From assembly GCA_035536395.1 (NCBI GenBank), contig DATLOE010000006.1, positions 6,899 to 70,898 of the forward strand: a DNA stretch of 64,000 bases. The letters are read 5' to 3'. Positions within the stretch are counted from its first letter, which is position 1, and the number at the start of each line of letters is the position of its first letter. Position numbers and translations under genes: made by a program. Positions 36,129 through 63,012 of the stretch are shown here, in pieces. The notes beneath the pieces were generated by a model that saw only the letters and a list, made by a program, of their open reading frames with translations, searched no databases and was not told where the DNA came from. Source of the DNA: Candidatus Dormiibacterota bacterium (GTDB lineage Bacteria; Patescibacteriota; Saccharimonadia; UBA4664; DATLOE01).

Positions 36129-36533
36129 GGCTAGATTGCCAGATGGCCGCCCGTAAATTACGGGAGGAAAGTCCGGACAGCATAGAGCAATGACGGTTGC
36201 TAACGGCAACCGGGAGTAAGTTCGAGCATTATTTCTCTCGAGAAAATGATACTTGAGCCAAGCCTAGGGAAAGTGCCACAGAAACGATACCGCCCAGCTT
36301 GCTGGGTAAGGGTGAAAAGAGTGGGGCAAGAGCCCACAACTTCGGTTGGTGACAACCGAAGGAGGTAAACCCCGTCTGCTGCAAGGCTGCCAGCCATACG
36401 CGATTGCTCGTCGCGGCTGGCGTGAGTGCCGCTTGAGCCGATCAGCAATGCTCGGCCCAGATAGATGGTCATCCAACCCGGTCCGCCAGTTGGTGGAGCG
36501 GGGGACAGAATCCGGCTTATAAGCAATCTAGCC
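36129..36533 (+). ncRNA. rnpB: RNase P RNA (bacterial type A)
   Basis: The P1 helix ggctagattgc pairs with gcaatctagcc. Conserved GGGAGGAAAGTCCGGAC, AAGGGTGAAAAGAGTGGGGCAAGAGCCCAC and ACAGAATCCGGCTTATAAG elements are present. Confidence 0.85.
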
Positions 36534-36563
36534 AGAAAGCCTCTAGGGGCTTTCTGTTTTTTG
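36534..36563 (+). terminator. Rho-independent terminator after rnpB
   Basis: agaaagcctctaggggctttctgtttttt. Confidence 0.7.
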
Positions 36564-48623: not shown

Positions 48624-49011
48624 TGGTGGAGCTGCGGGGAATTGCACCCCGGTCCGAAAGCTAACAAAATGTTCTTCTACAGGCTTAGACCGCTTAGCTG
48701 GGGTAAGCCCCGCTTAGGTAACGATCTGTAAGCGGACCAAATAACCGTTACTGCAGCCTAATGTCTTAAAAGCAGCCGTTAGGCGCCAGCTGCTTAGCAG
48801 CCAGAAAATATAACACCGGCGAGCCCCCATCTGGCGTCAGGTGCCGATGGCTTACGGGTTTAAGCGTAAGCTGGTGCGAGCTGAAGACCGCTAAAAGCAG
48901 TCTTAACCCGCGAAACAATCGAGTTGACGGTTGTTTATGGGTGGATTTAACGCATTCCTGCGGCCTGCAAAACAAATTGAAAATGTACTTTCGTCGAAGC
49001 TTATCAGCCCC
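48624..49011 (-). ncRNA. ssrA: tmRNA (SsrA)
   Basis: The 5' end GGGGCTGATAAGCTTCGACG and the 3' end GGACCGGGGTGCAATTCCCCGCAGCTCCACCA closely match the E. coli tmRNA ends (GGGGCUGAUUCUGGAUUCGACGG ... GGGUUCAACUCCCGCCAGCUCCACCA). The tag reading frame was not confidently resolved. Confidence 0.8.
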
Positions 49012-54676: not shown

Positions 54677-55117
54677 TTAGCGCGGCAGTTCTTTGGCCGT
54701 GTCGCGAATTTGATCGCGTTTTTTTATTAGCTGCCGTTTGTCATATTTTTTACGCCCGCGGCCAATTCCGATTTCTAATTTAATTAAGTTACGATCCTCA
54801 GCCAGCGAAAGGGGGACAATAGCGGCTCCAGCTTGCTTGTAGCCTGTCAGCTGTTCCAGCTCTCTCTTGTGCAATAGCAGCTTACGCGGCCGGTCAGGGT
54901 CTAGCCTGGAGCTATTCCCGGCCCGGTTATAGGGAGTAAAATGGGCGTTTGATAGATAAGCCTCTCCATCTTTCAGGGATACAAAGCTGCCCTTTAAGCT
55001 GACCTGTCCAAGTTTGCCGCTCTTTACCTCGGCCCCAGATAGCACAAGCCCCGCGGTCATCTTATGTTCGATCGCATAGTCGTAGCCGGCCCGCCTGTTT
55101 TTAGCCAGAATTTTCAT
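54677..55117 (-). CDS. smpB: SsrA-binding protein SmpB
   Basis: MKILAKNRRAGYDYAIEHKMTAGLVLSGAEVKS... Confidence 0.85.
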   Translation of the reverse strand: MKILAKNRRAGYDYAIEHKMTAGLVLSGAEVKSGKLGQVSLKGSFVSLKDGEAYLSNAHFTPYNRAGNSSRLDPDRPRKLLLHKRELEQLTGYKQAGAAIVPLSLAEDRNLIKLEIGIGRGRKKYDKRQLIKKRDQIRDTAKELPR

Positions 55118-55163: not shown

Positions 55164-56762
55164 ATGAACTTTGTTATGGTCTTAAGGGAAATTTCAGAAA
55201 TTGTTGCTAAGGCGGTTTGGACGGAGTTTAAGGTTAAAACCGCCCCCCAAATCAGCTATGCCGAGCCAAAGTTCGGTGATTTTGCTACTAATATCAGCTT
55301 TGAGCTTGCAAAAACATTGAAACAGAACCCGAAGCAAATTGCAGAGGGTATTGCGAGCAATATCAAACATCCTCAGATAGAGAAGGCTTCTAGTGTGGGC
55401 GGATTCGTGAATATCGTAGTGGCAGAGAGCTACTGGGTAGATTGCTTGAAGAAGATCAAACCTGGCTATGGACAAAGCAAGCCTCGAAAAGGTCAGAAAG
55501 TTCAGGTGGAATTCATATCAGCCAACCCCACAGGGCCGCTGACGCTGGGTAATGCCCGGGGTGGATATCTAGGGGATGTGTTATCTCGGGTGCTCGATCA
55601 TGCTGGCTACAAAACTACCAGTGAATATTACTTTAATGATGCTGGCACTCAGATCAGTAAGCTGGTCGAGTCGGTGAAGCACCAAGCCGGTATCATTAAA
55701 GCCAGTCAGGTTGAATACCAGGGTAAGTATATCGAGGAGCTGGCCAGCGATCTGAAAAATGAATTAAAAAGCCGATCCGACGAAGATTTAGCCGGAATAT
55801 TAACCAAAGAGGTCTCCAGGCGCTATATCAAAGAAGCTATTACCAGGATGGGTATTGAATTTGATGAGTGGTTTAATGAAAAGTCGCTGATTTCTAGCGG
55901 AGAACTCGAAAAAGCGCTTGAGTTGCTGCGCAAAAAAGGCCTGACATACGAGAAAGATGGGGCTTTGTGGCTGAAATCAACTGATTATGGAGATGAACGT
56001 GATCGTGTGCTACAGAAAAGCAACGGAGATGTTACGTATTTAGGTACCGATATTGCCTACCACCTTAATATCTTCGAGCATCGCAGATTCGATCGCGCAA
56101 TTAAAATCTGGGGGGCCGATCACGCCGGACAGGTTCCCTCCTTAAATCTGACCATGAAGCGCTTGATCCCAGATTGCCGCCTCGATTTTGTGATAGTTCA
56201 ATGGGTGCGTCTAGTCCAAGGGGGTAAAGAGGTAAAAATGAGCAAGCGAGCTGGCAGCTTCGTTACGGTGGATGAACTTATAGATGAAATTGGCTCCGAT
56301 GTAGCCAGATTTTTCTTTCTGATGCGCTCAGCTACCAGCCATATGGATTTCGATCTTAGCTTAGCCAAGGAGCAATCCCAGAAAAACCCCTTATTTTATG
56401 TGATGTACTCTTACGTGCGAGCCCACTCCATATTAGCTCAAGCTGCCTCTAAGCAGTTGAAGCCTTCTAATTCCCTTGAGAGGCTTAACACCACGGAATC
56501 AGAATTGGTTAAGTATATGACTCGGCTGCCTGATTTAATTTCAGAGATAGCAGAGAGTTATGAGGTACATCATTTGAGTTTCTTCGCCACCCAGCTTGCC
56601 AAGAAGTTTCATGATTTATATGAATCAGAGAGAATTATTGACCTAAATCAAGAAACAGCAGAATGCAAGTTGTATTTAATACAACAATACATTACATTTA
56701 TGGAAATATTATTTAATATAATTGGTGTAACACCAATCAAGAAGATGGAGCCTAAAGTTTAG
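55164..56762 (+). CDS. argS: Arginyl-tRNA synthetase
   Basis: Class I HIGH-like FISANPTGPLTLGNARGG. KMSK-like MSKRAGSFV. DALR anticodon-binding C-terminus. Confidence 0.85.
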   Translation: MNFVMVLREISEIVAKAVWTEFKVKTAPQISYAEPKFGDFATNISFELAKTLKQNPKQIAEGIASNIKHPQIEKASSVGGFVNIVVAESYWVDCLKKIKPGYGQSKPRKGQKVQVEFISANPTGPLTLGNARGGYLGDVLSRVLDHAGYKTTSEYYFNDAGTQISKLVESVKHQAGIIKASQVEYQGKYIEELASDLKNELKSRSDEDLAGILTKEVSRRYIKEAITRMGIEFDEWFNEKSLISSGELEKALELLRKKGLTYEKDGALWLKSTDYGDERDRVLQKSNGDVTYLGTDIAYHLNIFEHRRFDRAIKIWGADHAGQVPSLNLTMKRLIPDCRLDFVIVQWVRLVQGGKEVKMSKRAGSFVTVDELIDEIGSDVARFFFLMRSATSHMDFDLSLAKEQSQKNPLFYVMYSYVRAHSILAQAASKQLKPSNSLERLNTTESELVKYMTRLPDLISEIAESYEVHHLSFFATQLAKKFHDLYESERIIDLNQETAECKLYLIQQYITFMEILFNIIGVTPIKKMEPKV

Positions 56763-58794
56763 CCTTGGCTTTAATCAGTTTATTATCTGCAACCGTGAAC
56801 CATTGCTGGGTTTTGGCTTCATAAACCGCGGTAACGGCCTTACCGTAGCCTTCAAAACTGTACTGTTTTTCGAATGAAAGCGATTTATCAGATAGGCGCA
56901 TTATGCCGATTTTGGCAGTCTGACGACTGAAGACAGCCACTGTGTCCAGATTAATAACTTTAATTTCAGATATTTCTGACAGACCCTGGGGTAAGCCCTG
57001 AGCTTCATGGGTTTTCTGTCCCACCAAAAAGCGTTCCACCTTTTTGCCGCCACCGCTTATATAAATACTGCCGTCTATGGCAATGCTTGTAGCACTCTTT
57101 ATGCTTGGAAAGTCTCTTGAGCTAATCGAAGTAGAAGGTGAGGAGAAGCCGGCCAAAGTAGGTATATGTTTGTGAACGCCGGCATCATCTAAAACGTACA
57201 GACTGTTATTATAGCTGGCTATCGATCGGCCTCTTGCCCACGAACCCTGGCTGAGCTCCTTGCGTTCAAAGCGGTTGTCTTTAATCTGGTAGACCCATAC
57301 AGCAGGCTCCTCAGTTAGGATGTATATTGTGCCTCCGTCATCGGATACGGCTGAGGCCGTGATTACCCCTAGTCCTTTTGGAAGTGGCGCAGAGGTTAAC
57401 ACTTGGCTTGTAGCCGCATTGTAGACCGTAACGGCTTCTTCCTGGCCTATGACAATCAGATTACCCTCCACTGACTCTAGGAAGACTGGCATACTGTTTT
57501 TGTACTGCTTGATTACTTGCGGCTGTAGCCTGATTAATCCTTGCAGCTTGTCTATTTTTACTGCTACTTCTTCTTTGAGTTTTGTGACGCTTGCCGGATC
57601 TTGTTCCTCATGGGGTAGGGATTGCAGCTTGGCTTCAACCTGCTTAAGGGCCGGGCTTTTTGAGATGCTATCTAGTATTTTGTACGCGCTCTGTAAGTCT
57701 TGTTCAGCTGCAGCTTTATCCCGCAGCCCGAGCTTTTGCTGCCCAGAAAGAGTGAGAGTGTAAGCTTGCTGGTAGCGTTTCTGCTGTTTGCTGATTTCAC
57801 TAGCCCGCACCCATTGGTAGGTCGCCAGTGAGGCCACTAGCAGAATGGCGGCAGCGGCCATGATGACTGGCTTACGACTCTGTTTGCCTCTTATGGCCTT
57901 GCCCGCATAGTTTTGACTGCGTGCGATCGCTTTCTTTGTCAGCGGCAAAATACTCTGCCGATAAGCCGTCTGGCTCCGGGTATGGCCGTTCTTCAATACC
58001 TGGGCGGTTTTTTTAATAAAAGGCTTTAGGTTGTGTTGGGCACTTACGGCAAAAGACTCTCTGTCTTCAATGTGTAGTTCGCTTGGCTCATTGGGCAGAA
58101 CTTGCATAGCCAGGAGTTCAGGGGTAGTAACCGATGCTATTAGCCCTGAAGTGCGATTTAGGTTTGGCTGGGTTTTTAATATTTCGCCAATACGGCTTAC
58201 GGCCGTTTGGGGAGTTGAGTTGCTGGCAATGCTTCTTAACTCGGTCTGAGGAACCTTATGCATGAGGCCGGGAGTTGCAAAGACCAGCTGATCGCCGGTT
58301 TGAATTGTACCGCTGGCAACACTTTCAAAGGGTTGGCTATTATCGTTTGTTAGGCCTTCTGTCAGATCTATAGCGTGCTGTCCTCGGTACAAGTAGGCTT
58401 GAGCATTACCCATGCTCGATATTATCAGGCTGTCTTCATAGGCGACGGCGATGACAGCGTGGATCTTATCTGCCCATTCTGCCGATTGGCCGTATACTTT
58501 GGTGATGATTTCATTAAGTGCCTGTATGGTTGATTCGAAATTCGAAGTCCTATCAGGTTCACCTTCTTCGGTGGGTGGCGTGTAATAGGTTTCGCCAGCC
58601 GTTTGAATTAGAGTGTCAATTATCTCCTCCGCTTTCTTGGTGGGCCCCAGTACTTCAATTACCACGATTAGAGACCCAAGAGATTCAAGATTTTTAGGGG
58701 GCTCATAGCAGTAAGACAAGGCTGAACCGGCTGTAGGGTGCAGTCTTTTGCTTCGGGGAATGATTTTGGCAGTCTGGAGAATCAGCTTGGACAT
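56752..58794 (-). CDS. Membrane protein with a cytoplasmic PP2C-like phosphatase domain, one TM, a coiled coil and an extracellular beta-propeller-like repeat region
   Basis: The N-terminal region has PPM-like blocks (GSLIVVIEVLG; AVIAVAYEDSLIISSMGNAQAYLYRG). TM at ~aa 310-330. The C-terminus has repeated hydrophobic-G-D/N blade-like segments. Confidence 0.45.
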   Translation of the reverse strand: MSKLILQTAKIIPRSKRLHPTAGSALSYCYEPPKNLESLGSLIVVIEVLGPTKKAEEIIDTLIQTAGETYYTPPTEEGEPDRTSNFESTIQALNEIITKVYGQSAEWADKIHAVIAVAYEDSLIISSMGNAQAYLYRGQHAIDLTEGLTNDNSQPFESVASGTIQTGDQLVFATPGLMHKVPQTELRSIASNSTPQTAVSRIGEILKTQPNLNRTSGLIASVTTPELLAMQVLPNEPSELHIEDRESFAVSAQHNLKPFIKKTAQVLKNGHTRSQTAYRQSILPLTKKAIARSQNYAGKAIRGKQSRKPVIMAAAAILLVASLATYQWVRASEISKQQKRYQQAYTLTLSGQQKLGLRDKAAAEQDLQSAYKILDSISKSPALKQVEAKLQSLPHEEQDPASVTKLKEEVAVKIDKLQGLIRLQPQVIKQYKNSMPVFLESVEGNLIVIGQEEAVTVYNAATSQVLTSAPLPKGLGVITASAVSDDGGTIYILTEEPAVWVYQIKDNRFERKELSQGSWARGRSIASYNNSLYVLDDAGVHKHIPTLAGFSSPSTSISSRDFPSIKSATSIAIDGSIYISGGGKKVERFLVGQKTHEAQGLPQGLSEISEIKVINLDTVAVFSRQTAKIGIMRLSDKSLSFEKQYSFEGYGKAVTAVYEAKTQQWFTVADNKLIKAKAKL

Positions 58795-58883
58795 GTATGG
58801 CCCACTTTTGGCCTATGCTAGCATTATTTTACTCCCTAAACAATCCTTATGCTTATCTGTTAATCCTGCTATACTTAACTAAT

Positions 58884-61757
58884 ATGGAGTCGACTTTGCG
58901 AAGCTTGAACCCCGAACAGCGCCGGGCCGTAGAACATCTAGACGGCCCCCTTCTGGTTATCGCTGGGGCCGGAACAGGTAAGACGGAGGTAATCACTAGC
59001 CGGATTGCTTACCTAATTAATCACCACCACATTCCAGCTAGCCAGATTATAGCACTGACGTTTACAGATAAGGCAGCCCGAGAGATGGAGGAGAGGGTAG
59101 ATACACTGCTACCCTTGGGGTTAAATTTGCCTCAGGTACAAACATTCAATTCCTTCGGTGATCAGCTGCTTAGGGAGTACGCACTCGATATGGGCCTACC
59201 AATCAGTGCCAAGCTGATGTCTAAAACACAACAATTATTGCTTTTAATAGAGCATTTTGACGATTTAGAACTAGAATATTTTGCTCCTCGTGGGAATCCC
59301 TCTGATTTGTTTATTAACCTACTCGGCTACTTTTCTACCCTTCGTAATGAGCTGATACAACCAGAAGATTACGGTAAGTACGCCGCAAAGTCTGCAGAGT
59401 CTGCCGCAGGGGAAGAGGAAAAGCTCGAAGCCGACAAACACTTGGAATTATCAAACCTGTATAAAAAATATACCCAGATCAAAAAGAAGAAGGGCTTAAT
59501 GGACTATGACGACCAGATTAACCTGGTGATTGAGCTTATGGACAAGAGGCCAAACATATCAAAAGAGATCAGGGAGCGGTATCGCTATATATTAGTAGAC
59601 GAGTTTCAGGATACTAACTACGCCCAGAATTATCTGCTTGAACTTGTAGCAGGCAAGAAAGGTAACTTAATGGTGGTTGGAGATGACGACCAAAGTATCT
59701 ATAAGTTTAGAGGCGCGGCCGTTTCAAATATCCTCAGGTTCAGCGAAACATTTCAAGATGTAGAGCGTATCGTGCTTACCCGTAACTATCGTTCAACCCA
59801 AAAAATTCTAGATGCGTCCTACCGATTGATTCAGCACAATAATCCTGATCGTCTGGAGTTTAAATATCAGATTAATAAAGTTCTAGCAGCATCTGAGACT
59901 GGAACAGAGCCCACCCTTCTGCCCCAGCCCGATTATCATGCCGAGACAGAGGCAGTAGCAGCGCTGTTGGCCAAAAGAATAGCCTCAGGCACCAAGCCGG
60001 CCGACATAGCGGTTCTGGCACGCAAGCATAAGCAGCTAGAAGCACTTGTGCCGTCTTTGCAGCGGCATAAGGTGCCATTTAGCCTGCTCGGGCCTCAGAA
60101 GCTTTACAAGCAGCCTGAGGTGGAGCTAGTGGTGCATGCTCTAAGGTATTTGTCCGATCCTCATAATTCTGAGGCTTTGTACCATCTGCTGGCCAGAGAG
60201 CCATTTAAACTCGACATCCATCAGCTCGCGGCAGCGGCAGGTGGGGCAAAGCGAATGAATATGCCGCTGCGGCAGTACCTCCAGGAGCATCACACGGGGA
60301 GTAAAGATTTCAATGCCTCGCTTACAAAGTTCTTAGCATTCTTTGATGCGTTAAGAGATTCTGCTGCCAACCGCAGCGTACTCGAGGTGGCCTATAGCTT
60401 TTTAACTGAATCTGGGTATATCAGACAGCTTGAGACCAGGGCAGACCAGGACCCCACTATACCAGCCAGGTTTAAGAATTTGGAACGCTTTCTGCAGCTA
60501 CTAACCGATTTTTCTAGTATTGCTCATGACGCCAGTTTGCAGGCGTTTGCCAGTCAGTTTGACCACTTCCGTGATTTTACTAGCGAAGAGGCTTTTCAGG
60601 AGGCCGATTATGCTTTAGACGAAGTCAGGCTACTTACGATCCACCAGTCCAAGGGCTTGGAGTTTGAGACGGTCGTACTGTTTGATTTTAACCAAACCGA
60701 CTTTCCGGGCAGCTCAAGAACAGAAAGCCTCAAGATACCAGATACCTTACTGGCAGGCGAAGTACTACCTGCGGGCAACTGGCATTTGCAGGAGGAGAGG
60801 CGCCTCGCGTATGTGGCAATGACGAGGGCCAAAAAGGAACTAGTTATGACATTTTCACCTAACCATGGCTCAAAGCGCCTTCGCCGCCCGTCTATTTTTC
60901 TTCAGGAAGCGCTAGGGGATAAAGTTGAAATACCGGAAGCCGAAACAGCCACCTTCACCCTCGATCGCTTTGCTTCTGTGGCCGATAATAAAAAACTTGT
61001 TCAAAGCCGGCTTTATGATAATAAGGGCCGCTTAAGACTGACGCCGTACCAGATAGATGATTACCTAACCTGTCCCTATAACTTTCGCTATCGGGTATTG
61101 CTGCAAGTACCACAAGGGCCGAATCCGGTTCTGATGTATGGCAATATCATCCATCAGGCTATAAACCAGTATTACGTAATGAAGCGACAAGGCAAGATAG
61201 ACGAAGCAGTGCTTTTAAAAATGATTGAAGATTTATGGGTAAGCCAGGGATTCACCACCAAACAACAGGAGGATAAGATGATCAAACAGGCTCAATCTAC
61301 TGTTAAAAAGTTCATCGTCCAGGGGAGTAAGAGCGATTTAATGCCTGTTCACAGTGAGCATCCCTTTCAGTTTGAGCTGCCGAGCCACAAACTGGTGGTA
61401 AGCGGCCGGTTCGACGCGGTGTTTCAGTACCCAGATGGGCAGGTTGAGATCCGTGATTATAAAACCGGGCAGACTGATGACGAGGCGAAGGCCGAGGACA
61501 GGGCTAAAAAAAGTATTCAGCTTGGTATATACGCTCTAGCCTGGGAGAAGATAACAGGCAAGGCACCTGATATAGTTGCCCTGGAGTTCGTCGACACTGG
61601 CACTAGAGGCACCACGCATAAGACAGCCAAGCAGTTAATGGCTATAGAAGAGAAAATTATTGCGGTATCAGAAGGAATTAGAGCTGGACGGTTCGAGCCA
61701 AAGGGCGATCATCGCTATTGCGAGCATGGGCCGGTTCAGACTGGAATGCTGCTATGA
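58884..61757 (+). CDS. UvrD/PcrA-family helicase fused to a C-terminal PD-(D/E)XK (RecB/AddA-like) nuclease domain
   Basis: Helicase motifs GAGTGKT, DEFQDT, a VGDDDQSIY-like block and TIHQSKGLEF. C-terminal RecB-like motifs ...GRFDAV...EIRDYKTGQ... and terminal Cys residues. Confidence 0.75.
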   Translation: MESTLRSLNPEQRRAVEHLDGPLLVIAGAGTGKTEVITSRIAYLINHHHIPASQIIALTFTDKAAREMEERVDTLLPLGLNLPQVQTFNSFGDQLLREYALDMGLPISAKLMSKTQQLLLLIEHFDDLELEYFAPRGNPSDLFINLLGYFSTLRNELIQPEDYGKYAAKSAESAAGEEEKLEADKHLELSNLYKKYTQIKKKKGLMDYDDQINLVIELMDKRPNISKEIRERYRYILVDEFQDTNYAQNYLLELVAGKKGNLMVVGDDDQSIYKFRGAAVSNILRFSETFQDVERIVLTRNYRSTQKILDASYRLIQHNNPDRLEFKYQINKVLAASETGTEPTLLPQPDYHAETEAVAALLAKRIASGTKPADIAVLARKHKQLEALVPSLQRHKVPFSLLGPQKLYKQPEVELVVHALRYLSDPHNSEALYHLLAREPFKLDIHQLAAAAGGAKRMNMPLRQYLQEHHTGSKDFNASLTKFLAFFDALRDSAANRSVLEVAYSFLTESGYIRQLETRADQDPTIPARFKNLERFLQLLTDFSSIAHDASLQAFASQFDHFRDFTSEEAFQEADYALDEVRLLTIHQSKGLEFETVVLFDFNQTDFPGSSRTESLKIPDTLLAGEVLPAGNWHLQEERRLAYVAMTRAKKELVMTFSPNHGSKRLRRPSIFLQEALGDKVEIPEAETATFTLDRFASVADNKKLVQSRLYDNKGRLRLTPYQIDDYLTCPYNFRYRVLLQVPQGPNPVLMYGNIIHQAINQYYVMKRQGKIDEAVLLKMIEDLWVSQGFTTKQQEDKMIKQAQSTVKKFIVQGSKSDLMPVHSEHPFQFELPSHKLVVSGRFDAVFQYPDGQVEIRDYKTGQTDDEAKAEDRAKKSIQLGIYALAWEKITGKAPDIVALEFVDTGTRGTTHKTAKQLMAIEEKIIAVSEGIRAGRFEPKGDHRYCEHGPVQTGMLL

Positions 61758-62215
61758 GAGATGAATTATGGCTGCAGCAGCTTCTGGATGAAACCTGGGA
61801 TAAGTACTTTGCGGATGTCCCGCAAGATAATATTGTGCGGATAAAATTTGGCCGCCGGGCTCGTACTCGGCTGGGTTCAATCAGGATTCACCCCGACCAC
61901 CCGGATACTACCGAAATCACCCTTAACGGGCTGTTCAGGGATCCGGCGGTGCCCGAGTTTGTAGTACTTGCAACTCTGGTGCATGAAATGATTCATTACG
62001 CGCATGGCTTTAATTCTCCCCTGGAACAGAAGCACAGGCATCCGCACGCCGGCGGTGTGGTAAGAGCCGAGTATCGGGAGAGGGGGCTGGAGGAGCTCTA
62101 CTTAAGGCAAAAAAAATGGCTGAAAGCTAACTGGCCAGACATATTAAGAGCCAACTTCCAACCTGTAAAGCGAAGAATTGTAAAAAGAACAATACCCAAG
62201 CCGTTCTGGTTTTAA
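61754..62215 (+). CDS. SprT-like zinc metalloprotease domain protein
   Basis: HExxH in LVHEMIHYAHG, about 150 aa. The ATG at 61754 overlaps the helicase TGA (ATGA), indicating translational coupling. Confidence 0.55.
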   Translation: MRDELWLQQLLDETWDKYFADVPQDNIVRIKFGRRARTRLGSIRIHPDHPDTTEITLNGLFRDPAVPEFVVLATLVHEMIHYAHGFNSPLEQKHRHPHAGGVVRAEYRERGLEELYLRQKKWLKANWPDILRANFQPVKRRIVKRTIPKPFWF

Positions 62216-62216
62216 C

Positions 62217-62293
62217 TGGTCGGGGTGACAGGACTTGAACCTGCGACCTCAGCGTCCCGAACGCTGCGCGCTAGCCAACTGCGCCACACCCCG
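62217..62293 (-). tRNA. tRNA-Pro (anticodon CGG)
   Basis: The reverse complement reads cggggtgtggcgcagttggctagcgcgcagcgttcgggacgctgaggtcgcaggttcaagtcctgtcaccccgacca. It is identical to tRNA-Pro(GGG) outside the anticodon arm. Confidence 0.75.
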
Positions 62294-62354: not shown

Positions 62355-62627
62355 TTAATCGTCCTTGTACACATGTGCCTTACTGGATTCTCCTGGATTT
62401 TTCGTCCAGTAGATATTGCCGTCTGCCAGCTTAAGCATCCACCAATCTACCTCAACCTTGGTACCTCTTGGGGTCTTTGTAATACCCAGAGAGAGCGATT
62501 CGATATTTCGGTAGACGGTTTTTGCCTGGCTGCGGCTGGCGGCTTCACACCAGCGGCTTTTTTTCTCAGAATCACCGCTGACCAGCCAGTAGGCAGTAAC
62601 GCCTGGGTTGTAGCTTCGAACAGCCAT
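62355..62627 (-). CDS. Hypothetical small protein (90 aa), translationally coupled to the upstream zinc-ribbon gene
   Basis: TGATG stop/start overlap at 62625-62629. No recognisable motif. Confidence 0.4.
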   Translation of the reverse strand: MAVRSYNPGVTAYWLVSGDSEKKSRWCEAASRSQAKTVYRNIESLSLGITKTPRGTKVEVDWWMLKLADGNIYWTKNPGESSKAHVYKDD

Positions 62628-62884
62628 CAGATGAGCGGACCCATTGGATCGTACTCATCAGACTTCATGTTGTCTGCTCGATCGCTACCTCGCTTTCCGC
62701 TTGGGAGTTTGCGGCGCGAGCCATCCTTAACCCAACCACGCCCAGGATGGCGCTTCTTTGGGTTCATGCGATAAAGCTTGAGTTTGGTTGGCTCATCGCA
62801 GTTGGGGCAGTGGTCTGCTCCATTGAACTGCAAAGCTGATGTGCCGCAATTGGCGCATCCAGCATATGTTTCTGGGTTGGCCAT
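62627..62884 (-). CDS. Hypothetical small zinc-ribbon protein (CxxC-x12-CxxC) with a basic C-terminal tail
   Basis: MANPETYAGCANCGTSALQFNGADHCPNCDEP... Confidence 0.4.
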   Translation of the reverse strand: MANPETYAGCANCGTSALQFNGADHCPNCDEPTKLKLYRMNPKKRHPGRGWVKDGSRRKLPSGKRGSDRADNMKSDEYDPMGPLI

Positions 62885-63012
62885 TGCGGCTCCTTTTCAG
62901 CAGGTTGGTGTTCAAGGTACGATTAACATATATATTATAACCATAAAAGCTATAAATGTCAATGTCTGTAGCTGTGAAACAGATAAGAAATTTGGTCTGC
63001 TATGATGTTTTT

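Follow-up and report, generated by a model that had tools for sequence, protein, structure and literature searches.

A conserved overlapping gene pair in Saccharimonadia joins a helicase-nuclease to a small SprT-like metalloprotease and may serve protein-blocked DNA

When the stop codon of a helicase-nuclease gene overlaps the start codon of a small metalloprotease gene, do the two products work together, or do they merely share a compact stretch of genome? The question is raised by 64,000 nucleotides (nt) of contig DATLOE010000006.1 (positions 6,899 to 70,898; assembly GCA_035536395.1), hereafter the window, in which a gene for a 957 amino acid (aa) fusion of a UvrD-type helicase and a RecB-family nuclease precedes a gene for a 153-aa protein resembling the SprT and SPRTN proteases, with a gene for a PP2C-like protein divergent from both. 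An earlier note, made from the letters of the window alone, proposed a dedicated helicase-nuclease-protease operon for DNA-protein-crosslink repair, end processing or defense, and the three open reading frames (ORFs) that it described are all present at the coordinates it gave. We find that the helicase-nuclease and SprT-like genes form a conserved overlapping operon in Saccharimonadia, and we consider that this operon may act on DNA blocked by bound protein.

The junction in the window reads ...gctgctATGAgagat..., with the helicase TGA at 61755–61757 and the ATG of the next gene at 61754–61756, so that helicase stop and SprT-like start share 4 nt within gctgctATGAgag. The ATGA overlap with the downstream HExxH ORF that the earlier note had reported is therefore confirmed at 61754–61757. 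We prefer this ATG to an upstream TTG at 61718, because the N-terminus of the SprT-like family reads MRDE.... To follow the pair through other genomes, we scanned one genome per GTDB species with an alignment of the protease family and obtained 70 loci, 69 of which carry a clear homologue. The helicase-nuclease gene lies directly upstream of the protease gene, on the same strand, in 44 of these 69 species-level loci (L001–L043 and L056), all of them from Saccharimonadia-type metagenome-assembled genomes (MAGs). At about 38 of the 42 orthologous junctions in which both genes are complete, stop and start overlap by 4, 8, 11 or 14 nt, typically in the forms ATGA and ATGCGTGA, and a GGAG-like stretch often stands just upstream. 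Overlaps occur at 12 to 15 of the 44 co-directional junctions of the window (~30%); a single ATGA overlap is thus not unusual, but its conservation across some 38 of 42 junctions exceeds this base rate.

The genes on either side of the pair change more readily. Downstream of the protease the neighbor is highly variable, the largest family accounting for 6 of 40 loci, and includes an EamA transporter, a PA14 protein, a kinase-like ATPase, a pentapeptide protein, an EEP nuclease and DUF763; upstream of the helicase, the PP2C-like gene and argS alternate. The join between helicase-nuclease and protease, at the edge of a synteny block, is thus the adjacency that changes least. Measured against the window proteins, the linked loci have median identities of 62% (protease), 57% (SmpB), 48% (ArgS), 34% (helicase) and 29% (PP2C-like protein), which makes the protease the most constrained gene of the neighborhood.

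Some loci have peculiarities of their own. Proteins of the window's contig carry the NCBI label ‘Candidatus Dormibacteraeota bacterium’, at odds with its Saccharimonadia/Patescibacteria gene content, and the close relatives of the genes of the locus all come from Saccharimonadia/Patescibacteria MAGs; mis-binning or mislabelling is likely, and the source is almost certainly a CPR (Candidate Phyla Radiation) bacterium of the Saccharimonadia. The ArgS proteins encoded upstream of the pair in L001–L043 fall into two classes of identity to the ArgS of the window (47–59% and 21–26%), suggesting that some of the clade has exchanged its arginyl-tRNA synthetase gene in place for a divergent or xenologous one. 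The complete genome CP064960.1 (L040) has a broken helicase ORF of 663 aa, ending ~1 kb before the protease gene, and a truncated PP2C-like ORF (381 aa) alongside an intact protease gene; these may be pseudogenes or assembly frameshifts.

We conclude that the small protein, a stand-alone zincin, has the SprT-like proteases as its nearest known relatives and represents a divergent, unannotated subfamily. SprT-like (PF10263) is the sole real Pfam match of its family. The AlphaFold2 model (pLDDT 87.5, pTM 0.80) has the fold of the SprT metalloprotease subdomain, and its best match in the PDB is the SprT domain of human SPRTN (6mdw/6mdx; probability 1.0, TMq 0.47, 21% identity); after it come the minigluzincin selecase and, as a poor match, IrrE; the top fold matches in a viral structure library are mostly SprT-named proteins. 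In an alignment of 28 members, every residue named in the metal-site row of Table 1 is invariant, as are E106 and E109-R-G, and the metal-site residues are retained in distant members from Candidate Phyla Radiation (CPR) bacteria and DPANN archaea. The HExxH of residues 77–81 contributes H77, E78 and H81, and H98 takes the place of the downstream third metal-ligand His expected of SprT-like proteins; it lies 17 residues past H81, a spacing that we take to be comparable to that of the third His of SPRTN.

Searches at the level of sequence place the family apart from its better-known relatives. The small protein has no NCBIfam or PADLOC match, and its PHROGs matches are to two families only, both of unknown function. 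A profile of the family has no meaningful match among PDB sequences, so that the similarity to SPRTN is visible only at the fold level. One member has a weak match to the related Pfam family YgjP-like. The family comprises 544 proteins in a 90%-identity collection, all annotated as ‘hypothetical’, and 197 clusters at 50% identity among 1.84 billion representatives; with only 197 clusters, it has not been merged by HMMER with mainstream SprT proteins. Toward its C-terminus the model has a helix and then a basic tail, the tail at low confidence. P150, F151 and W152 are invariant after the basic run in the 28-sequence alignment; the ending PKPFW(F/L/M/I) is found only in the helicase-linked clade, in most of its members, and other clades have a basic run followed by (K/R)WI.

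A few members of the protease family are longer, at 278–347 aa (P0150, P0154, P0169, P0175, P0181, P0190, P0193, P0199 and P0204), and appear to be tandem duplications in which the N-terminal copy is active (HELAHYVHG...PH.GG) and the second has a degraded HExxH (e.g., CELAS); many end in HPL(R). The distant two-domain member P0150 scores 26.1 bits against Pfam SprT-like, above the threshold. We considered these proteins as possible helicase-protease fusions and rejected the idea, the extra half having no Pfam match and reading as a degenerate second copy of the domain, not as a helicase.

The upstream gene encodes a single-chain helicase-nuclease, predicted to combine a PcrA/UvrD-type motor with an AdnB-type nuclease. 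We take the ATG at 58884 as the likely start, homologues aligning from residues 1–8 of the 957-aa version. Pfam recognizes UvrD-helicase (1.5e-74), UvrD_C (5e-46) and, at residues 718–948, PDDEXK_1 (1e-26; 94.7 bits, above the threshold of 22), and the fusion described in the earlier note is thus real. Among solved structures, PcrA (1pjr, 9e-77) comes nearest to the motor, ahead of UvrD and Rep; for a profile of the nuclease domain the best match is mycobacterial AdnB (7sjr_B/6ppu_B, 8e-15), ahead of AdnA. Across 37 orthologues, the superfamily 1A (SF1A) motifs AGAGTGKT (Walker A), LVDExQDT, VGDDDQxIYxFRGA, NYRS, TxHxxKGLEF and YVAxTRA are at least 90% conserved. The same is true of the nuclease motifs GRxDA, ExRDxKT and QLxxYA, with conserved residues D844, E855, D858, K860, Q878/879 and Y882/883, so the check on intact nuclease residues that the earlier note had suggested comes out in favor of the domain. 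Only two Cys, C730 and C946, are conserved in these orthologues, which excludes a 4-Cys Fe-S cluster of the AddB/Cas4/Dna2 type. The protein misses the NCBIfam equivalog cut-offs for PcrA (~390 bits versus 911), Rep (344 versus 951) and UvrD (318 versus 1144), and scores far under those for AddA and RecB. The 64-kb window contains no paralogue that could serve as a second helicase-nuclease-like subunit, and no conserved partner subunit is found beside the orthologues or the metagenomic relatives described below.

What might these two proteins do together? The reading that we favor, which we hold tentatively and regard as possible rather than probable, is that they form a conserved operon for processing protein-blocked DNA of the DNA-protein-crosslink type. 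The genes would be co-transcribed and translationally coupled, yielding matched amounts of both proteins. The helicase-nuclease would load on DNA ends or gaps, translocate, unwind and resect, and could there encounter a protein bound covalently or very tightly to the DNA. The obstacle might be a topoisomerase or methyltransferase trapped on the DNA, or an aldehyde crosslink. The SprT-like protease would then cut the blocking protein, allowing unwinding, resection or recombination to continue. The protease might be kept on DNA through its basic tail, and possibly on the helicase through its PKPFWF end. A basic region of SPRTN binds DNA, and by analogy the basic tail could plausibly do so here; the aromatic end may serve as a docking peptide. 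Since the protease works without the helicase in other lineages (see below), the helicase would be a clade-specific rather than an obligate partner.

Several results speak for this reading. The pair is adjacent in 44 of the 69 loci, with overlaps above the ~30% base rate, and the constraint on the protease is strong (62% versus 34% for the helicase). The nearest relative of the nuclease domain, AdnB, is an enzyme of double-strand-break end resection, and on the strength of this AdnB-like domain we judge the helicase-nuclease to be an end-resection-type enzyme. Some neighbors of the protease in loci that lack the helicase handle DNA, namely ComEA-ComEC in seven loci, RmuC, and hydrolases of the metallo-beta-lactamase (MBL) fold. 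The helicase/protease pair would parallel FANCJ and SPRTN in eukaryotes, where FANCJ is described as unfolding crosslinked proteins ahead of SPRTN cleavage (PMC10175854, citing Yaneva et al., 2023). An extended form of the idea, in which the two proteins form a physical complex, a dedicated bacterial crosslink-repair machine with the protease docked through PKPFWF, and in which the zincin family is a near-universal crosslink protease of CPR and DPANN, seems to us unlikely. If true, it would provide a prokaryotic, operon-encoded counterpart of FANCJ-SPRTN, the helicase-nuclease driving into and unfolding crosslinked proteins and the protease degrading them.

Other observations weigh against a shared role in crosslink processing, beginning with the identity of the protease. 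With 22.0 bits (E 1.5e-4), the 153-aa protein falls below the Pfam SprT-like gathering score of 25.6; all 28 aligned members score under it too, 13 of the 28 reaching E<0.01 and none bettering the window protein. The protein is accordingly not a demonstrable Pfam SprT-like member, and the SprT-like assignment of the earlier note survives on the strength of the only real Pfam family, the SPRTN fold and the SprT-named viral folds, but not of the Pfam threshold. The fold similarity to SPRTN is itself modest (TM ~0.47, E ~2e-3). The protein contains no Cys and hence has neither the zinc-binding subdomain through which SPRTN contacts single-stranded DNA nor the zinc ribbon of E. coli SprT. Five linked loci (L016, L021, L041, L042 and L056) lack the PKPFWF variant of the tail, and as a marker of the helicase this variant is confounded with phylogeny. 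The synteny is also less telling than it appears. The smpB-argS-...-SprT block is syntenic in the clade, and its unrelated members smpB and argS are conserved as well, from which it follows that long-lived synteny in compact genomes needs no shared function; the conservation of the pair in other genomes, anticipated by the earlier note and present in 44 of 69 loci, loses some of its force as evidence. The same note had named two outcomes that would undo its proposal, failure of the SprT profile and absence of the pairing from every other genome: neither occurs outright, the profile match lying below threshold and the pairing recurring as described.

A further objection is that each gene exists without the other. 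Protease genes without the helicase occupy 25 of the 69 loci, beside unrelated genes such as those for aminoacyl-tRNA synthetases, an MFS transporter, HIT, PCMT and the RNase P subunit Rpr2. L046, L052, L054 and L069 have the order smpB-argS-protease, matching that of the window without the PP2C-like gene and the helicase. Seven loci from Microgenomates/Daviesbacteria (L058–L063 and L067) have the order leucyl-tRNA synthetase (LeuRS), SprT-like, ComEA, ComEC, ArgS, in which ComEA consists of SLBB and HHH_3, and ComEC, at ~340 aa, of the Competence domain only; in L051 the protease gene is followed by RmuC. Another Saccharibacteria group (L044, L045, L050, L053 and L055) has the protease between an MFS transporter and an MBL-fold gene, and in these five loci and in L041 the protease gene shares its 3' end with the beginning of the ~206-aa MBL-fold gene. 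L041 combines both arrangements, with the helicase ~500 nt upstream and the MBL-fold gene overlapping downstream. Members with 38–42% identity occur in L064, L066 and L068, from MAGs labelled Woesearchaeota, Nanoarchaeota or ‘archaeon’, and in the DPANN loci L066 and L068 the protease gene is convergent with the gene for the RNase P subunit Rpr2/Rpp21. The protease family thus spans two domains among ultrasmall symbionts, CPR bacteria and DPANN archaea.

The helicase, for its part, has relatives without the protease. A metagenome scan with the full-length helicase alignment was followed up for the best 80 of at least 600 pattern matches, a sample and not a census. These 80 relatives share 27–38% identity, the same range as the orthologues, and 53 carry the nuclease domain; 44 are followed by 450 nt or more of sequence and can be tested for the pairing. 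The protease family is absent (E<=10) from the whole of all 44 of these loci, 0/44, in a search that recovered 70 of 70 control loci, and the genes around the metagenomic relatives are heterogeneous. The pairing is therefore specific to one large Saccharimonadia clade, both genes functioning independently elsewhere, and the dedicated helicase-nuclease-protease module of the earlier note is not borne out as a general one: none of the 44 relatives has the protease, and the protease occurs without the helicase in CPR and DPANN.

On another account the two genes share an operon without shared biochemistry, the protease being a housekeeping zincin of CPR and DPANN with its own substrate and perhaps acting neither on DNA nor on protein. 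The helicase, with or without the PP2C-like gene, would have been inserted between argS and the protease gene, the overlap persisting as a by-product of genome compaction. We consider this account doubtful, yet it is the main rival to the reading that we favor. It is favored by the smpB-argS-SprT-like order in the four loci just named, by a protease far better conserved than the helicase, by the presence of the protease family in Microgenomates and DPANN archaea among heterogeneous neighbors, by the frequency of overlapping junctions in this genome, by the lack of the protease beside the metagenomic helicase relatives, and by the weak YgjP-like match of one family member. Against it stand the facts that ~90% of linked loci keep adjacency and overlap across deep divergence even as the downstream gene changes, that the closest folds are those of the DNA-associated SprT/SPRTN proteases, and that several helicase-less contexts (ComEA/ComEC, RmuC) are DNA-related. 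These contexts could instead point to an accessory role in DNA uptake and recombination, the helicase-nuclease processing incoming or broken DNA for RecA-dependent recombination and the protease clearing proteins or maturing components. Saccharibacteria are naturally transformable through ComEC (PMC10633639), the protease gene is directly upstream of ComEA-ComEC in the seven Microgenomates/Daviesbacteria loci and beside RmuC in L051, and AdnB, the nearest match of the nuclease domain, is an end-resection enzyme. However, neither the window nor any of the 44 linked loci has com genes close to the pair, the ComEA/ComEC adjacency is limited to one lineage, and comEC is dispensable for growth (PMC10633639), in contrast to the very strong constraint on the protease; we regard an uptake role as improbable.

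Two further possibilities carry less weight. A damage-sensing regulatory protease of the ImmA/IrrE type, in which single-stranded DNA made by the helicase would activate the zincin to cleave a repressor, is suggested by weaker fold matches to IrrE (3dte) and to IrrE-N-terminal-like viral proteins, but those to IrrE are poor (TMq 0.32, root-mean-square deviation 12), the protein has no Pfam Peptidase_M78 match, and no gene for a helix-turn-helix repressor is adjacent to the pair, in the window or in the other loci, so that this role is very unlikely. The defense-type nuclease module suggested in the earlier note, here read as a helicase-nuclease effector with a protease directed against phages or plasmids, is the least credible of all. 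Helicase-nuclease fusions are known in defense systems, and the helicase core matches the Gabija GajB and DRT helicase models in PADLOC; these are, however, generic matches to a UvrD core, neither the protease nor the PP2C-like protein has a PADLOC match, and there is no GajA-like partner. In 44 species the pair keeps its place next to smpB and argS rather than lying in a variable island; 2.9 million viral contigs contain no member of the protease family, whose strong conservation is atypical of defense genes. Given the generic PADLOC matches, the fixed core-genome position and the lack of viral copies, we rejected a defense system.

The features of the locus are collected in Table 1. The 89-bp region between the divergent genes is presumably the site of both promoters. 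A consensus scan finds no sigma-70-like site within 58795–58883, and the promoter and terminator scans perform at chance level around the helicase/SprT-like unit, where they are uninformative on the operon.

Table 1. Coordinates of the helicase-nuclease/SprT-like locus in the window.
Feature	Position	Strand	Details
Divergent PP2C-like gene	56752–58794	−	680 aa
Divergent intergenic region, PP2C-like gene to likely helicase start	58795–58883		89 bp
Helicase-nuclease gene	58884–61757	+	957 aa from ATG 58884; longest ORF from 58797
SF1A (PcrA/UvrD/Rep-type) helicase core	58905–60857	+	Residues 8–658
RecB-family PD-(D/E)XK nuclease domain, AdnB-like	61035–61727	+	Residues 718–948; PDDEXK_1 match
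ATGA stop/start overlap, helicase-nuclease/SprT-like	61754–61757	+	
Stand-alone SprT-like zincin gene	61754–62215	+	153 aa
Predicted metal site of SprT-like protein	61982–62056	+	H77-E78-x-x-H81-Y-x-H84-G-F-x-S-P ... P97-H98-A-G-G
Basic C-terminal tail with PKPFWF end	62159–62212	+	Residues 136–153 of SprT-like protein
tRNA-Pro(CGG)	62217–62293	−	Convergent; abuts SprT-like stop; marks 3' end of unit

Beyond the unit, a perfect 12/12 sigma-70 consensus (TTGACA-17-TATAAT) at 62934–62962(−) lies upstream of two small ORFs and the tRNA-Pro(CGG) gene. The ORF at 62627–62884(−) encodes 85 aa with a weak double-zinc-ribbon match, and that at 62355–62627(−) encodes 90 aa with no match; none of the 70 genome loci carries a homologue of either. 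Elsewhere in the window are a class A RNase P RNA gene at 36131–36535(+) (257 bits) and a transfer-messenger RNA (tmRNA) gene at 48624–49011(−) (99 bits), ~5.7 kb from smpB (54677–55117).

The divergent gene encodes a PP2C-like (PPM-fold) N-terminal domain (~1–243), a disordered linker, a long helix with a hydrophobic stretch (~307–356), a coiled coil (~360–417) and a C-terminal beta-propeller (~420–680). Its model has a pLDDT of 75 from a 4-sequence alignment, homologue searches bounded by a word index having yielded 3–4 proteins. Foldseek matches the N-terminal domain to the PP2C phosphatase tPphA (2j86_B, E 1.5e-9, TMt 0.60) and the C-terminal part to WD40 propellers at E ~1e-10, and the divergent gene with PP2C, transmembrane and propeller parts of the earlier note therefore holds at the fold level. 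Sequence signals are weak and consistent: the PDB profile matches are all PP2C (E ~0.02), and the NCBIfam Stp1 match has E 0.0014, with 18 bits versus a cut-off of 230. No Pfam domain, PP2C included, is found in the protein or in 23 orthologues, and neither profiles nor the metal-binding Asp motifs place it in PP2C/PPM, the fold alone matching. In the only alignment obtained, the PP2C motif GDSR aligns to GSAE, and by our own reading of the consensus the Asp of the SDGL type appears replaced (TPAL/TPGL); the domain may thus be non-catalytic, a pseudo-phosphatase. The gene is present in ~32 of the 44 linked loci and missing from at least eight (L002, L003, L005, L006, L008, L009, L020 and L056), which makes it an optional neighbor and not a core part of the pair.

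Both proteins of the pair belong to known superfamilies, and the helicase-nuclease architecture is widespread. What is new is a compact, unannotated, very strongly conserved SprT-like subfamily common to CPR bacteria and DPANN archaea, together with its conserved overlapping operon with a helicase-nuclease in Saccharimonadia. A literature search found no description of SprT in connection with Saccharibacteria or CPR, or with operons of UvrD-type helicases. The strong conservation of the protease in reduced genomes suggests an important function. It is plausible that the pair is a bacterial crosslink-repair module, as a clade-restricted candidate, and the operon offers a concrete and testable one. 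The organisms that carry it have minimal repair repertoires, and genetic manipulation of Saccharibacteria is now possible (PMC10633639). Should the link to the helicase be syntenic only, the finding shrinks to the annotation of two genes of known kinds.

Set beside known systems, the proteins show both likenesses and differences. Like AdnAB, AddAB and RecBCD, the helicase-nuclease joins a UvrD-like SF1 motor to a C-terminal RecB-family nuclease, but it is one polypeptide with no second subunit gene nearby, its motor resembles PcrA/UvrD more than AdnB, AddA or RecB, and it has no Fe-S cluster. PcrA, UvrD and Rep are its best full-length motor matches and share all SF1A motifs with it, whereas it falls far below their equivalog cut-offs and has an additional 240-aa nuclease domain. 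The divergent protein resembles tPphA, PstP and Stp1 in its N-terminal fold, with weak profile matches only to PP2Cs, and differs from them in having no Pfam or NCBIfam membership and in the fusion of a transmembrane helix, a coiled coil and a propeller. With SPRTN and PF10263, the small protein shares the HExxH zincin core, a further His ~15–17 residues on, the best PDB fold match and, with SPRTN, a basic region that could bind DNA. It differs from SPRTN in its length of only 153 aa, in an extra invariant H84 and PHAGG motif, and in having no zinc subdomain or ribbon, no Cys and no ubiquitin, PCNA or p97 motifs; from mainstream SprT proteins its family is set apart as a compact group of ~200 clusters at 50% identity that HMMER leaves unmerged. 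FANCJ lacks a nuclease and is an Fe-S helicase of SF2 with 5'-3' polarity, and in eukaryotes the two proteins are not encoded together; what the bacterial pair would have in common with FANCJ-SPRTN, as described in the account cited above, is the concept of a helicase working with a SprT-type protease.

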